A stretch of DNA of 64,000 bases, from contig CAVRTJ010000006.1 in the NCBI GenBank assembly GCA_963724125.1, positions 17,780-81,779 of the forward strand, written 5' to 3'. Below, in pieces: positions 49,074 to 54,225 of this stretch; position 1 is the stretch's first letter; each line of letters starts with the position of its first letter. The notes beneath the pieces are model-generated. The model had not been told where the DNA came from. It made no database searches and saw nothing but the letters and a program-made list of their open reading frames with translations. The DNA comes from an uncultured Acidobacteriota bacterium (GTDB lineage Bacteria; Acidobacteriota; UBA4820; DSQY01). Both the position numbers and the translations under genes were made by a program.

Positions 49074-49102
49074 TTGAAATTGCGGACCCGTCCTGCTAAC
49101 TT
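49074..49102 (+). promoter_or_regulatory. Candidate sigma70 promoter for pduS-pduT (TTGAAA, 17-nt spacer, TAACTT) in the mpl/pduS divergent region.
   Basis: Read directly from the sequence, immediately upstream of the GGAGGA RBS at 49111. Confidence 0.35.
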
Positions 49103-49119
49103 TGCCTTTTGGAGGATCC

Positions 49120-50418
49120 ATGGCTAAAGCTGCAACGATTGCCCTCAAGTGCGGTGTGGTCGGCGCGGGAGGAGCGGGCTTCCCCACGCACGTCAAACTC
49201 GGCGCACGAGCCGATACCTTTGCCGTCAACGCGGCCGAATGCGAGCCCCTGCTTTACAAAGACCAGGAAATATTGGAGAACTTTCTGGGGCCGTTCAGTG
49301 AGGGCCTCCTGCTCTGCGCCGAATCCGTGGGTGCGGACCGGGTCCTGATCGGCATCAAAGAAAAACACGCCACCCTCATCGAGCGCCTGCGGGACGAGTT
49401 GCCTCCGGGCGTGGAAGTGTGCCCGCTGAAGGATACCTATCCGTCGGGCGACGAGCACATCCTCGTCTACGAAACAACGGGCAGGGCCATCCCGAAGGGC
49501 GGCCTCCCACTCGATGTCAACGTCGTAGTCAACAACGTGGAAACGGTCTTGAACGTCGGCCTGCAGAAGCCGGTCACGGAAACGTTCGTGACCGTTTCCG
49601 GTGCGGTGCCCGAGGTCCTGACCTTCAAGGTACCCATAGGCGCCTCGTTTGCCGACGTCCTGGCGGCCGCCGGCGCTCCGATGCAGGATATGGGATTCGT
49701 CATCAACGGCCCCATGATGGGGCGAGTCACCACCGACCTTTCCGAGCCTGTCACAAAGACCACTTCGGGGATCCTTGTCTTGCCCCTCGGACACTCGCTG
49801 CTGCAGAGGAAAACCCGAACGAAGCAAACGGTGCACAAGATCGCCTATACATGCGATCAATGCATGCGCTGTTCTGACTTCTGCCCCAGGGATCTCCTCG
49901 GACACATCGTCAAGCCTCACAAGGCCATGATCTCGGTCGGTTTTTCGGCCGAAGAGGCCACCGCCTGGCAGGAAACGGCACTCTACTGTTGCGAATGCGC
50001 CCTCTGCACTCTCTACGCGTGCCCGGAAGACCTGGATCCCTTTCGTATCATGGTCGAGAGCAAGCGGGCACTCATGGCCAGGGGTGTCAGGCCCAGGAAG
50101 GAAGAGGTCCAACCTCTCGCCATGTACGACTACCGGAGAACCCCCACGAAGCTCCTCATGAGACGCCTTGACCTGACGCGCTTCGACGCTCCGCACCGGT
50201 TCGAACAGAGGGAAGTCTCTTCCCCGGTGCTGCGCATCCCGCTAAAACAACACACGGGAGCCCCTTCCCTGCCTGTCGTCGCGTCCGGCGATCGCGTCGA
50301 ACCCGGCCAGCTTATCGCCGAGATTCCGAAGGACAGCCTGGGGGCCAGGATCTTCGCCCCCAGGAGAGGACACATCCTGTCCGTCGAGACTGACGGCATT
50401 ACTCTGGAGGTTTCATGA
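49120..50418 (+). CDS. pduS: PduS-like (RnfC-family) flavo-iron-sulfur protein, a cobalamin-reductase-type microcompartment electron-transfer protein.
   Basis: GVVGAGGAGFPTHVKL (NuoF/RnfC-type nucleotide site), SLBB region, two ferredoxin-type motifs CDQCMRCSDFCP and CCECALCTLYACP, C-terminal barrel-sandwich domain. Start codon overlaps the downstream gene (ATGA). Confidence 0.85.
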   Translation: MAKAATIALKCGVVGAGGAGFPTHVKLGARADTFAVNAAECEPLLYKDQEILENFLGPFSEGLLLCAESVGADRVLIGIKEKHATLIERLRDELPPGVEVCPLKDTYPSGDEHILVYETTGRAIPKGGLPLDVNVVVNNVETVLNVGLQKPVTETFVTVSGAVPEVLTFKVPIGASFADVLAAAGAPMQDMGFVINGPMMGRVTTDLSEPVTKTTSGILVLPLGHSLLQRKTRTKQTVHKIAYTCDQCMRCSDFCPRDLLGHIVKPHKAMISVGFSAEEATAWQETALYCCECALCTLYACPEDLDPFRIMVESKRALMARGVRPRKEEVQPLAMYDYRRTPTKLLMRRLDLTRFDAPHRFEQREVSSPVLRIPLKQHTGAPSLPVVASGDRVEPGQLIAEIPKDSLGARIFAPRRGHILSVETDGITLEVS

Positions 50419-51098
50419 GCCCAAGGATCCACCAGATAAAGACGGAGCGCAGAGCATCCGATCGACGCGCCCGGCCTGAGCGGGCCGGTTCAAAAGACTC
50501 CGGAAGTGCCGCCGGACCTACCTCCCGCCCCGCGGCACGCAACGCTATCGGGCTGCTCGAACTCACCTCCATCGCCAAGGGAATAGAAGCCACCGATATC
50601 ATGCTCAAGGAATCGGACGTCGAACTCCTCACGAGCCGTTCCATCTGTTCCGGGAAATACATGGTCCTCGTGCGCGGCGACGTGGCCGCCTGCACCTCTT
50701 CAGTGGCCGCCGGCGAAGCCCTCGGTCGCGAGACGGTGGCCGATTCCATCGTCATTCCCTACCTCCACGAGGAAGTGTTCCCGGCAATTTCCCAATCCGC
50801 GATGGTCGAGAATGTGGAGGCACTGGGCATTCTGGAGGCGTTCAACGTGGCCACGCTGATCGAGGGCGCGGACGCCGCGGTCAAGGCCGCCGAGGTGCAC
50901 CTCCTGGAAATCCGCATCGCGATGGCCCTCGGCGGAAAGGCGTTCTGTGTGGTCACGGGCGAGGTATCGGCCGTTCGCGCGGCCGTCGATGCGGGAAAGG
51001 CCGTCATCGGGGAAAAGGGCCTGCTCACGAACTGGGCCGTGATCCCGGCCCCCGATCCCAACCTCGTCAAAGAAGTCCTCGGCGGAAGGCTGGTGTGA
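50415..51098 (+). CDS. pduT: PduT-like tandem-BMC-domain shell protein (BMC-T) with a ~50-aa Arg/Ser/Pro-rich N-terminal extension.
   Basis: Two BMC domains (AIGLLELTSIAKGIEATDIMLKESDVELL..SICSGKYMVLVRGDVAA and ALGILEAFNVATLIEGADAAVKAAEVHLLEIRIAMALGGKAFCVVTGEVSAV). Conserved Cys in the SICSGK loop at the PduT Fe-S position. GGAGG RBS before the ATG at 50415. Confidence 0.85.
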   Translation: MSPRIHQIKTERRASDRRARPERAGSKDSGSAAGPTSRPAARNAIGLLELTSIAKGIEATDIMLKESDVELLTSRSICSGKYMVLVRGDVAACTSSVAAGEALGRETVADSIVIPYLHEEVFPAISQSAMVENVEALGILEAFNVATLIEGADAAVKAAEVHLLEIRIAMALGGKAFCVVTGEVSAVRAAVDAGKAVIGEKGLLTNWAVIPAPDPNLVKEVLGGRLV

Positions 51099-52504
51099 CC
51101 GATCGGAACTTTTCATGGGGTAGTCCAATGGGCTCTTTCGTTTATACCCACTGTGCGTTGAGAACCTCCGAACAAAAAGGATCCACGGGATTCGCAAGGG
51201 GTCTGTGTATTTTTGTCGCATTCTGCCTTGCCGCCCTGGGCGCCTTCGCCCAAGGTGCAACAGAGAATCCCCAGCCTCCGCCCGCAAAGCAGATCACCGG
51301 CGTCATCACGGAGAGTGGATTCACTCGGCTCAACGTTGCCCTGCCTCCCTGTAAAACGGATACGAAGACGTCTCAACAGGGCAGGCAGATCATTTCTGTG
51401 GTTCAGGATGATCTGGACTTTTCCGGCTACTTCGCCATCGTTCCCGCTTCCCTCTACGCCGGCATGAACCTCGGCGACTCCACCATGGATTACAACGCGT
51501 GGAAAGGCATGAAGGCCGATTACCTCCTACTGACCACCCTGTACAGGTCGGAGGGCCAACTCACGCTGGAAGGGCGACTCTACGACATAAAACGTGAGGA
51601 GATGGTCACCGGAAAGCGCATCAAGGCACCCGAGCACGAGATACGCGCGCTGGGACACAACATGTCTTCCGTCATCCTCGACTATCTTTTCGGCGCCGGG
51701 GCGTTCCCCACGAGCCACGTCCTCTTTACTTCGCACCTGGGCCGGACGGAGGACATTTTCCTCTGCGACTACGACGGGAAAAACTTGATCAGACTGACCG
51801 CCATGGGCCAGTTGAACGTCACTCCGGACGTTAACGCAAACGGCAGCCTCATGGTATTCACGTCCATCCTCAAGGACAGGCAGGAGATCTTCCTGCTCAA
51901 CAGGCAGGGAAAGCGGACCAAGTTGTACGGCGAGGGCGAAGGTCTGAATTCCAATCCCCGCTTTTCCCACGCGGGCAAGACCGTGGCTTTCTGCACGTCC
52001 CGATCGGGTAATCCCGACATTTGGACGATAGGGACGGACGGCAAGCACATGAAGAGGATCACCTTCTCTTGGGCCATCGACACGGCGCCCACGTGGTCTC
52101 CGGACGACCAGAAAATAGCGTTCACCTCCGACCGCTCCGGCTCCCCGCAGATCTACGTCATGGACAGAGACGGCGCCAATGTGAAGCGCCTCAGCCCCCC
52201 GGACAGCGGACGCTGCGACCAGCCATCGTGGTCTCCCCGAGGCGATAAGATTGCATACGCCAGTTTCAAGGACGGTCACTTCAACATAGCCGTCATCGAT
52301 CTCAATACCAACGAGGTGACCTACCTTACGCACGGGGAGGGCGACAACGAAGCGCCAAGCTGGTCTCCCGACGGCCGTTACCTCGCATTCGCGAGCAACC
52401 GATCGGGGAGCTACCAGATCTACATCATGCGCTGGGATGGAACGGGAGTGACCAGAATCACCCACCAGCCTGACTGCTACTCACCCTGCTGGTTCAAGGG
52501 ATAG
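51095..52504 (+). CDS. tolB: TolB-like periplasmic beta-propeller protein. Start uncertain: GTG 51095 overlapping the pduT stop, or ATG 51128, or TTG 51158.
   Basis: Signal peptide GLCIFVAFCLAALGAFAQG. TolB N-domain-like region. Repeated propeller blades with SP(D/R)G motifs (WSPDDQKIAFTSDRSGSPQIYVMD, PSWSPRGDKIAYAS, PSWSPDGRYLAFASNRSGSYQIYIM). Confidence 0.7.
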   Translation: MTDRNFSWGSPMGSFVYTHCALRTSEQKGSTGFARGLCIFVAFCLAALGAFAQGATENPQPPPAKQITGVITESGFTRLNVALPPCKTDTKTSQQGRQIISVVQDDLDFSGYFAIVPASLYAGMNLGDSTMDYNAWKGMKADYLLLTTLYRSEGQLTLEGRLYDIKREEMVTGKRIKAPEHEIRALGHNMSSVILDYLFGAGAFPTSHVLFTSHLGRTEDIFLCDYDGKNLIRLTAMGQLNVTPDVNANGSLMVFTSILKDRQEIFLLNRQGKRTKLYGEGEGLNSNPRFSHAGKTVAFCTSRSGNPDIWTIGTDGKHMKRITFSWAIDTAPTWSPDDQKIAFTSDRSGSPQIYVMDRDGANVKRLSPPDSGRCDQPSWSPRGDKIAYASFKDGHFNIAVIDLNTNEVTYLTHGEGDNEAPSWSPDGRYLAFASNRSGSYQIYIMRWDGTGVTRITHQPDCYSPCWFKG

Positions 52505-52530: not shown

Positions 52531-54225
52531 ATGTTGAGGCATCTCAAGCTCCATGATTTCGCGCTTGTAAAGGACCTCGAACTGGAACCGGGGGAGGGTT
52601 TGTGTCTCCTCACGGGCGAAACGGGCGCGGGCAAGTCAATTCTCGTAGGCGCCGTCGGCCTTCTGTCGGGACAGCGCGCCGAGTCCGAAATGGTGCGAGA
52701 CGGAAGCGACGCAGCGGTCGTTGAAGGTTCCTTTCACGTTCAGCGGCACGCGCCGGAGGTATCGGCCCTGCTCGAGCAGTGGTCTCTCCCCTTCGATGGG
52801 GAAGTGATAGTCCGCCGCAGGGTGCTCAGAGAAGGCAGAAACGCCATCACGGTCAACGGCGGCGCGGTGACGCTTGCCCAACTCAAGGACCTGGGCGCTC
52901 ATCTCGTACAGGTCCACGGCCAGAACCAGGGACAGTCCCTTCTCGATGAGGAGGTCCACAGAAGCATACTCGACGGTCTGCCCGACGTGTCTCCAGCGGC
53001 CGGGGCGCTCGGGCTGTCGTTCGAGGCGCTCGAACAGGCCCTTCGCCTGTTGCGCGGCATTCAAAGGAGCGAGTCCGAGCGGGCACAGCGCCTTGACACG
53101 GTGGTCCTGCAAAGGGGCGAAATAGACCGCGTTGGTCCCAGCCCCGGCGAGGAGGACGAGCACCTAATCGCCAAAGCACGCATGCAGAACGCGGAGGACA
53201 TAGCCGAGGCAGCCAATGCCGTCGCCTCCCTCTTGCGGGACGACGAAGCGAGCGTCGCCTCCCAGCTCGCCGAAGCAAGGCGCAGACTGGGCGACCTTGG
53301 CGACATGGACCCCTCGTGGATCCCGTACATCAAGGACCTGGAGAATTCGGCCGATGTGCTGGCAACCATTGCCTCCGAGGCGGAACGAACCGCTTCCACC
53401 GTAAATTATGACCCGGAGGCGCTCGAGAGTGTCCTCCAACGGCTCGCCGACCTGGATGGCCTTAAGAAGAAATACGGTCCATCCCTCGACGAGGTGCTTG
53501 CCCACAGGAACGCCCTCGAAGAGGAATACGCCGAACTCACGGGCAGAGCCGTTTCTGAGGCCGAGGCCCTCAGGCGCCTGGACGGAGCCTTCGCGGGCTA
53601 CCAGGAAGCCGCCCGTGTCTTGTCCCGCCTCCGTGTCGCCGCGGCACGGTCCTTTTCAACATCGGTGGAGACTGCCCTCCGCCCGCTGGCCATGGACAAG
53701 GCCCGTTTTCAAGTGCAATTGCCTCCCCGCTCCATAGAGGACCCGAAACAGGCCAGTCGTCTGGGTAACGAGGACGTACGATTTCTCTTCTCCGCCAACC
53801 CGGGCGAATCTCCCAAAGCTCTCTCCAAAATAGCATCCGGCGGAGAGCTCAGTCGCTGCCTGCTGGCTTTGCTGACGGTCGCCCTGGGGGGTACCGCGCC
53901 CGATACGCTCGTCTTCGACGAAGTCGACGGGGGCATCGGCGGCCGCCCGGCTGAACGCGTCGGCCGCAGTCTCAGGAAGCTCGCCTCGAAACACCAGGTC
54001 CTGTGTATCACTCACTTGCCACAGATCGCCGCATTCTCCCACTGGCACGCAAAGGTCGAGGGGTAGGTCGATGCCGGCAGGACCGTCGTGGCGGCCCGGG
54101 TTCTCCCCGAAGCGGAAAAGGCGGACGAGATCGCCCGCATGCTGGCCGGCGAGACGATCAATGAAACCGCACGCCAGCACGCGCTTCAACTCATCAAGAC
54201 GTCGGAGAGATCCGAAGGACGGTGA
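52531..54225 (+). CDS. recN: DNA repair protein RecN, with an in-frame TAG at 54064-54066.
   Basis: Walker A LTGETGAGKSIL, coiled-coil middle, signature/Walker B region GGELSRCLLALLTVAL..LVFDEVDGGIGG, then HAKVEG-TAG-VDAGRTVVAARVLPEAEKADEIARMLAGE continuing in the same frame to the stop at 54223. Confidence 0.8.

Follow-up and report, generated by a model that had tools for sequence, protein, structure and literature searches.

The window analysed here, a 64,000-nucleotide stretch of contig CAVRTJ010000006.1 from an uncultured Acidobacteriota bacterium (assembly GCA_963724125.1), carries a gene for a tandem bacterial microcompartment (BMC) shell protein with an N-terminal extension of 43 residues (50415..50543). 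In our judgement it is at least highly probable that this protein is a PduT-type BMC-T^SE tile coupled to an MNdh/PduS flavoprotein, that the pair is a satellite of an ACI microcompartment in a Thermoanaerobaculia-like acidobacterium, and that the extension is a translated, disordered, polycationic tail which was gained a single time. The complete explanation, in which this identity is combined with a mechanism, namely an outward-facing tether at the electron exit of the tile, falls somewhat short of an even chance. An earlier sequence-only reading had noticed the extension without recognizing the MNdh/BMC-T^SE electron-export module or its ACI satellite status.

PduS and PduT were renamed MNdh and BMC-T^SE by Sutter et al. 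in 2024 (PMC11275729). Judged by its sequence, the shell protein has every feature expected of the BMC-T^SE/PduT family. Its two PF00936 domains (~180 residues) follow each other in the non-permuted order, and Pfam places the first of them at residues 44-115, with AIGLLEL beginning at A44. The nearest solved structures are the PduT-type trimers 3NWG, 3PAC, and 3N79, to which residues 42-222 align collinearly; residue 42-43 pairs with residue 2-3 of 3NWG and 3N79 or with residue 22 of 3PAC, whose deposited chain has ~20 extra residues ahead of its own SQAIGILEL start. The C78-S-G-K-Y of the window protein fits the pore-cysteine motif C-[PSA]-G-[KRS]-[YF] (PMC6325248), and Cys78 is aligned with the Cys of ICPGKF in PduT 3PAC. 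The protein encoded directly upstream is collinear with the PduS-like proteins of 12 related loci, and the four-domain architecture of PduS has been described (PMC6325248). The ATG of the shell protein gene (50415) overlaps the TGA stop of the PduS-like gene (50416-50418) as ATGA, and a PduS-like gene lies directly upstream of BMC-T in nearly all of the 89 loci compared, the 2 exceptions being cut by a contig end. Since the domains of PduS are found upstream, the nearest structures are of the PduT type, and the pore-cysteine motif is present, we conclude that the pair is the PduS/PduT module. The sequence-only reading was right that the protein is extended and overestimated by how much: it had put the extension at ~50 residues, with the BMC domains starting at about residue 55, and the interval that it flagged, 50415-50585, takes in the first 14 residues of the BMC domain.

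The tail of the window protein contains 9 Arg, 2 Lys, 2 Asp, and 2 Glu residues, with a net charge of +7 and an isoelectric point (pI) of 11.9; 4 of its 43 residues are Pro, and only 3 are hydrophobic. Across the clade, the 39 distinct tails are 29-49 residues long (median, 37) and all 39 are positively charged (net charge +2 to +11; median, +6; pI, 10-12). The earlier description of the segment as rich in Arg, Ser, and Pro holds for the window sequence and not for the clade, where Pro (16.5%), Ala (14.7%), Arg (13.1%), and Lys (9%) prevail over Ser (8.9%). The cores attached to these tails are acidic (net −4 to −11) and slightly more so than the short-form cores, in samples that are not phylogenetically independent. 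The first nine positions follow M-S-[PA]-[KR]-[IP]-x-[QN]-[IT]-[RK] and occur in two flavours, MSPKIHQIK and MSARPVNIRKK, while the junction between tail and core reads [IP]-[RK]-[DN] ahead of AIGLLEL. One sub-clade has a second conserved tail motif, [PA][RK]D[AS]Y[QRG]G, which contains the only aromatic residue of the tail; it occupies alignment columns ~40-55 in P0003, P0010, P0011, P0017, P0023, P0028, P0032, and P0037. AlphaFold2, run on the monomer with the alignment of 39 sequences, gave residues 1-43 a predicted local distance difference test (pLDDT) score of 41-50 and no secondary structure, so that the tail is predicted to be disordered, and scored the core at ~85-98 over most of its length and lower near the C-terminus. 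This is in agreement with the strongly basic, disordered segment first described. An encapsulation-peptide-type helix was also considered and was rejected in view of the predicted coil, the 4 Pro residues, and the scarcity of hydrophobic residues; the helical hydrophobic moment did not discriminate, since its scale is governed by Arg and Pro is present in the highest-scoring windows.

From the start signals and the pattern of substitution, the extension appears to be real and translated rather than the product of a misassigned start. The ATG, the ATGA overlap, and the tGGAGGt ahead of them are identical across 11 long-form loci, and in these loci codons 3-9 differ by synonymous changes (CCA/CCC, AGG/AAG/AAA, ATC/ATT, CAG/CAA, and ATA/ATC) with the amino acids kept. 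The ratio of nonsynonymous to synonymous substitution (dN/dS), calculated by the Nei-Gojobori method, was 0.03-0.07 for the BMC core, ~0-0.2 for codons 1-9, and 0.36-0.53 for the spacer (residues 10-43), the last in three independent close pairs. Pooled over the three pairs, the proportion of synonymous differences (pS) in the spacer was 0.38 versus 0.20 for nonsynonymous differences (pN; Fisher p = 0.005). Because the pN of the spacer is below its pS, selection acts on the protein in the BMC-T reading frame. It could still be argued that the tail is not made at all, that a non-canonical codon close to the beginning of the domain serves for initiation, and that the upstream frame is a high-GC artefact. 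Open frames arise easily at 60-67% GC, several relatives have a frame that is open for >170 codons upstream, and the GC content at third codon positions (GC3) is low in the window linker (0.62, compared with 0.80 in the pooled linker and 0.84 in the core; the composition makes positions 1 and 2 GC-rich). In the window, the BMC-T frame is closed upstream by a TGA at 50391. However, after codon 2 there is no in-frame ATG, GTG, or TTG until Met63 (50601), itself a residue of the BMC domain, and there is no Shine-Dalgarno sequence ahead of residue 44. Initiation at ATC or CTG (residues 45-47) would remove part of the first strand, the residues of which are invariant or nearly so. On these grounds an internal start is not credible, and with the conserved ATG, GGAGG, and amino acid motif and the excess of pS over pN in frame, we regard a tail that is not made as extremely improbable. 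The case made in the sequence-only reading for a genuine extension, that is, a good GGAGG ribosome-binding site, an ATG overlapping the pduS stop, and no alternative in-frame start closer to the domain, was borne out, and the internal initiation that it had named as a possible refutation has no start from which to proceed.

Homologs of the shell protein fall into three length classes: those of 213-233 aa have the extension, those of 187-194 aa have 3-11 residues ahead of the core, and those of 183 aa have 4. The long form makes up 39 clusters at 90% identity and is present in 8 species-representative genomes titled Thermoanaerobaculia or Acidobacteriota metagenome-assembled genomes (MAGs; L010-L017); in the scan of species representatives, its closest match to the window protein has 91% identity. 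The domain is preceded by 2-5 residues in the proteins of ~70 loci from Bryobacterales, Terriglobia, Melioribacteraceae/Ignavibacteriota, and Bacteroidota, and by 8 residues in those of Aminicenantes-like loci. When the core was searched against 1.84 billion representative proteins, the 137 PduT-like representatives with a match from the core start had a median of 4 residues before the core; 100 of them had ≤6, and 11, which are unverified gene calls, had ≥20. Together with the structures 3NWG, 3PAC, and 3N79, this supports the earlier statement that canonical PduT lacks such an extension. The homologs compared thus place the 43-residue tail as specific to a Thermoanaerobaculia-like clade of Acidobacteriota, the question of lineage specificity that an alignment had been suggested to settle. 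Nor are the homologs that share it common and annotated: the 39 clusters carry only the generic label 'BMC domain-containing protein' or the wrong label 'CcmL/EutN'. Five distant PduT-like proteins (P0285, P0323, P0367, P0388, and P0390) have 77-143 residues before the BMC core, which may be independent tails or over-extended gene calls; P0285 (~77 residues) starts with MASIKTSLKKTK, followed by a Lys/Ala/Val-rich low-complexity stretch. Going by these sequences, long N-terminal extensions are uncommon in the PduT family and not unique to this clade. In a neighbor-joining tree of the cores, the long forms make up one clade, within which a short-form group with 5-8 residues is nested (P0027, P0029, P0038-P0041, P0047, P0062, and P0066); the tree is most simply read as secondary loss in this group. 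P0030 has a tail of the MSARPLNIRKK type like that of P0006 and a core nearly identical to that of P0028, which has a 49-residue tail of the MSPKIHQIR type; it could be the result of recombination between tail types or a chimeric assembly.

No other BMC genes (BMC-H or BMC-P), class II aldolase, or other ACI genes were found within the 64-kb window. Two long-form MAGs carry the ACI main locus on another contig. In GCA_027349505.1, the long-form gene is on DAIEMO010000133.1 and the main locus on DAIEMO010000104.1; in GCA_964589625.1, they are on CAZPSH010000019.1 and CAZPSH010000002.1, respectively. In both MAGs the main locus encodes a tetratricopeptide repeat (TPR) protein, a class II aldolase, BMC-H, three BMC-P, a protein of unknown function, and a 2-hydroxyacid dehydrogenase. 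From these two genomes, the most likely reading is that the MNdh/BMC-T^SE module of the window is a satellite of an ACI microcompartment. For the module in ACI microcompartments, 5 of 7 occurrences have been reported at satellite loci (PMC11275729). Two Aminicenantes-like loci, L008 and L009, have pduS-bmcT-tolB-recN followed by BMC-H, three BMC-P, an unknown gene, and the 2-hydroxyacid dehydrogenase, a gene set in agreement with the ACI-type locus as catalogued in 2021 (PMC8217296). In the Thermoanaerobaculia loci, a relocation of the shell genes may account for the satellite state.

Some further observations on these loci can be added. In L008 (8640-16872) and L009, the directly adjoining ACI-type main locus also holds a C92 peptidase, and tolB and recN sit between microcompartment genes without an obvious reason. 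The protein encoded after the BMC-P triplet in ACI loci has a conserved Cys-rich C-terminus (CVNCRGRCRQLGF, CCGSGRCKTLGF, and CDGSGRCKTLGF) and no recorded Pfam match (L008, 14944-15324; L091, 10921-11526; L094, 10912-11490). The ~70 MNdh/BMC-T pairs from Bryobacterales, Terriglobia, Melioribacteraceae/Ignavibacteriota, and Bacteroidota (L007 and L020-L089) have no BMC-H or BMC-P within 10 kb.

It has been proposed that MNdh oxidizes NADH on the convex luminal face of the tile and that the electrons leave through the 4Fe-4S cluster in the pore; as the acceptor on the concave cytosolic face, the same study anticipates a small ferredoxin or flavodoxin and reports no specific partner (PMC11275729). 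In PduA, a non-permuted BMC domain, the N-terminus is on the concave, cytoplasm-facing side (PMC6109187). By analogy with this topology, the tail of the window protein should be on the cytosolic face. If the N-terminus is thus on the concave face, opposite MNdh, the cytosolic electron exit of each trimer would be surrounded by three tails. We suggest that the N-terminus leaves the non-permuted domain toward the cytosol and that the three basic tails of a trimer would hang over the electron exit of the acidic tile as flexible fishing lines. The charge of the spacer would offset that of the tile and draw in a soluble, acidic ferredoxin- or flavodoxin-type carrier, and the terminal motif would provide a specific contact that keeps this carrier near the pore cluster. 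That the tail is an outward-facing tether bringing an acidic electron acceptor to the pore cluster is a tentative proposal, to which we give distinctly less than an even chance. A more specific version, in which the tail is a dedicated docking arm whose 9-residue motif binds a particular ferredoxin- or flavodoxin-type carrier or a membrane oxidoreductase and whose basic spacer steers it to the cluster, is unlikely. Among the roles raised in the sequence-only reading, a tether fits best with the order of a conserved short motif followed by a variable spacer. Genomes with a tailed BMC-T also encode, 6-8 kb away from their ACI shell genes and in a position that is conserved, a very acidic ferredoxin of 77 aa (Fer4_13, net −12 to −13); it is a candidate for the external electron acceptor, as a lead rather than as evidence.

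The spacer also has much of what would be expected of a neutral low-complexity expansion, in which a solvent-exposed MSP...RN leader (~8 residues in sister lineages) would have been lengthened by slippage in a GC-rich genome, and the product, translated and without specific function, would be tolerated because it points into the solvent. It is the fastest-evolving part of the protein, with a dN/dS that, beyond the close pairs (0.36-0.53), reaches ~1.3 in a saturated pair; the tail varies from 29 to 49 residues with many indels; its content of P, A, R, and G is what GC-rich codons produce; short forms are nested in the long-form clade; and AlphaFold2 predicts no structure. However, residues 1-9 are strongly constrained as amino acids while their synonymous sites vary, the net positive charge has been kept in 39 of 39 tails, the pN of the linker is significantly below its pS, one sub-clade has a second conserved motif, and the tail persists across lineages in which synonymous sites are saturated. 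We regard the neutral explanation as doubtful.

The charge of the tail (net +2 to +11; pI 10-12) and its Pro/Ala/Lys/Arg-rich sequence with PKKPK- and RG-type stretches, a composition that resembles histone-H1-like tails, would equally suit an anchor to an anionic surface outside the shell, as would the predicted position of the N-terminus on the cytosolic face. The surface might be the nucleoid or RNA, serving positioning and segregation, or the inner membrane, which would bring the electron exit near membrane acceptors. In EutK, a basic nucleic-acid-binding extension is found on a shell protein, which favors such an anchor. However, the position-specific terminal motif points to a protein partner over generic electrostatics, a tail in which 3 of 43 residues are hydrophobic and no amphipathic helix is predicted would be a poor membrane anchor, and the conserved neighborhood contains no ParA/McdA-like or DNA-related partner apart from recN, which is also found beside short forms. 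We consider an outward anchor improbable.

The tail might instead face the lumen and bind MNdh or other cargo for loading during assembly, as a shell-to-core tether like the N-terminus of PduB, the deletion of which lowers enzyme loading (bioRxiv 10.1101/2021.10.27.466122). The translational coupling of the BMC-T gene to MNdh is consistent with this, half of the published AlphaFold2 models of the complex put MNdh on the concave face (PMC11275729), and the orientation of native shells is debated (PMC6109187). However, PduB is permuted and the window protein is not, which puts the N-terminus of the latter on the concave face, whereas MNdh has been assigned to the convex face from footprinting and conservation (PMC11275729). 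Between long and short forms we found no clade-specific indel or terminal change in MNdh accompanying the tail, and there is no internal start that would yield an isoform pair like PduB/PduB'. Because of the domain topology and the lack of an internal start, a luminal tether is disfavored, and we think it very unlikely.

Several points weigh against the outward-facing tether and the satellite assignment. The ACI main locus was seen in the genomes of relatives and is inferred from them for the genome of the window, and the debated shell orientation in native metabolosomes (PMC6109187) bears on the side to which the tail would point. The structure prediction covers the monomer only. The linker is fast-evolving, with a dN/dS of about 0.4-0.5, and rich in indels, and the nested short-form subclade suggests that the tail can be lost. 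The ferredoxin is a candidate partner and, at 6-8 kb from the shell genes, may be an unrelated neighbor. A six-frame search by regular expression in the window and 96 loci, including ACI main loci, found the tail motif nowhere except at the BMC-T start; the motif is absent from the other proteins in the window and the compared loci and therefore is not a shared targeting peptide in the sequences examined. A profile of 34 tails recovered 0 of 314 word-sharing candidates at E ≤ 10 from a collection of 5.8 billion proteins, a size at which a tail-only profile, being short and of low complexity, has no power.

The features of the locus are listed in the table below. The ATG at 49120 may be the true start of the MNdh/PduS-like gene, which has a Mur-ligase gene (Pfam) upstream on the opposite strand. 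The order pduS-bmcT-tolB-recN is kept in all long-form loci with downstream sequence and also in the group with 8 residues before the domain. An origin of the tail from a frameshifted 3' end of pduS was considered and rejected, since long and short forms do not differ in the alignment column where PduS ends. The in-frame TAG of recN takes the place of an Ala, Ser, or Thr codon of relatives (VEG*VDAGR in the window versus VEKAVHAGR in L010), and homology runs for 52 more codons past it according to tblastn; it might be explained by a nonsense mutation, a pseudogene, or an error of assembly.

Table 1. Coordinates of the shell protein gene, its parts and neighbors in the window, and of the ferredoxin genes in related loci
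Feature	Position	Strand	Remarks
Shine-Dalgarno sequence GGAGG	50406..50410	+	4 nt ahead of ATG; tGGAGGt identical in 11 long-form loci
Tandem-BMC shell protein ORF	50415..51098	+	227 aa; starts MSPRIHQIKTERRASDRRARPERAGSKDSGSAAGPTSRPAARN
Start codon and N-terminal motif, residues 1-9 (MSPRIHQIK)	50415..50441	+	Position-specific counts over 39 tails
Variable basic Pro/Ala/Arg/Ser-rich spacer, residues 10-43, predicted disordered	50442..50543	+	pLDDT below 50
Tandem BMC-domain core, residues 44-227, with stop codon	50544..51098	+	PF00936 twice, E = 3.9e-44
Codon of Cys78, predicted pore 4Fe-4S ligand (C-S-G-K-Y)	50646..50648	+	Invariant in 39 homologs
MNdh/PduS-like flavoprotein gene	49102..50418	+	Complex1_51K, SLBB, Fer4_17, C-terminal RnfC_N (Pfam)
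tolB homolog	51095..52504	+	TolB_N and PD40 (Pfam); listed GTG start overlaps BMC-T stop codon
recN homolog, last gene of the conserved block	52531..54222	+	In-frame TAG at 54064-54066
77-aa ferredoxin gene	L090, 18191-18424; L092, 15388-15621; L093, 13855-14088; L094, 16743-16976	-	

A description of the tail was found neither in the 2021 catalog (PMC8217296), which does not discuss the PduS/PduT pair, nor in the MNdh paper (PMC11275729) or the glycyl radical enzyme-associated microcompartment (GRM) review (PMC6325248), and we found no literature that combines Acidobacteria with PduS and PduT. A clade in which the tail is conserved and predicted to point outward would be a natural starting point in the search for the external acceptor, and if the docking-arm version is true, the tail peptide could be used as bait for the electron acceptor of the microcompartment. 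The tail would, in addition, exemplify display on the outside of a shell in nature, which is of interest for shell engineering. If the neutral explanation is true, the tail amounts to no more than a disordered appendage of one lineage, with little consequence.

The closest known system is the BMC-T^SE/PduT and MNdh/PduS pair itself, with which the window pair shares the tandem non-permuted BMC domains, the pore Cys in C-S-G-K-Y, the position of BMC-T directly downstream of and coupled to a four-domain PduS-type flavoprotein, and, probably, the satellite occurrence. In contrast to the canonical protein, which starts 2-5 residues before the first strand, the window clade adds a basic disordered tail of 29-49 residues with a motif. 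PduB, also a trimeric tandem-BMC shell protein, has an N-terminal extension that is likewise some dozens of residues long and a putative flexible tether. However, PduB is permuted, has its N-terminus on the opposite face, and is made as two isoforms from two starts, whereas the window protein is non-permuted with a single start; the two extensions have no sequence similarity, and their predicted sides of the shell differ. Encapsulation peptides share the design of a short conserved terminal element with a poorly conserved linker to a folded domain, but they are amphipathic helices of ~18 residues on cargo, whereas the tail is on a shell protein, contains Pro, and is predicted to be a coil. Extensions of shell proteins are a known theme, including BMC-H extensions of up to 200 residues. 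Those of EutK and PduK are, like the tail, extra specialized segments, but they are C-terminal and on BMC-H, whereas the tail is N-terminal, disordered, and on BMC-T; the basic EutK extension is a folded helix-turn-helix domain that binds nucleic acid. The family, the module, and shell protein extensions as a theme are thus already known, and what is new here is the tail on a PduT-type tile.

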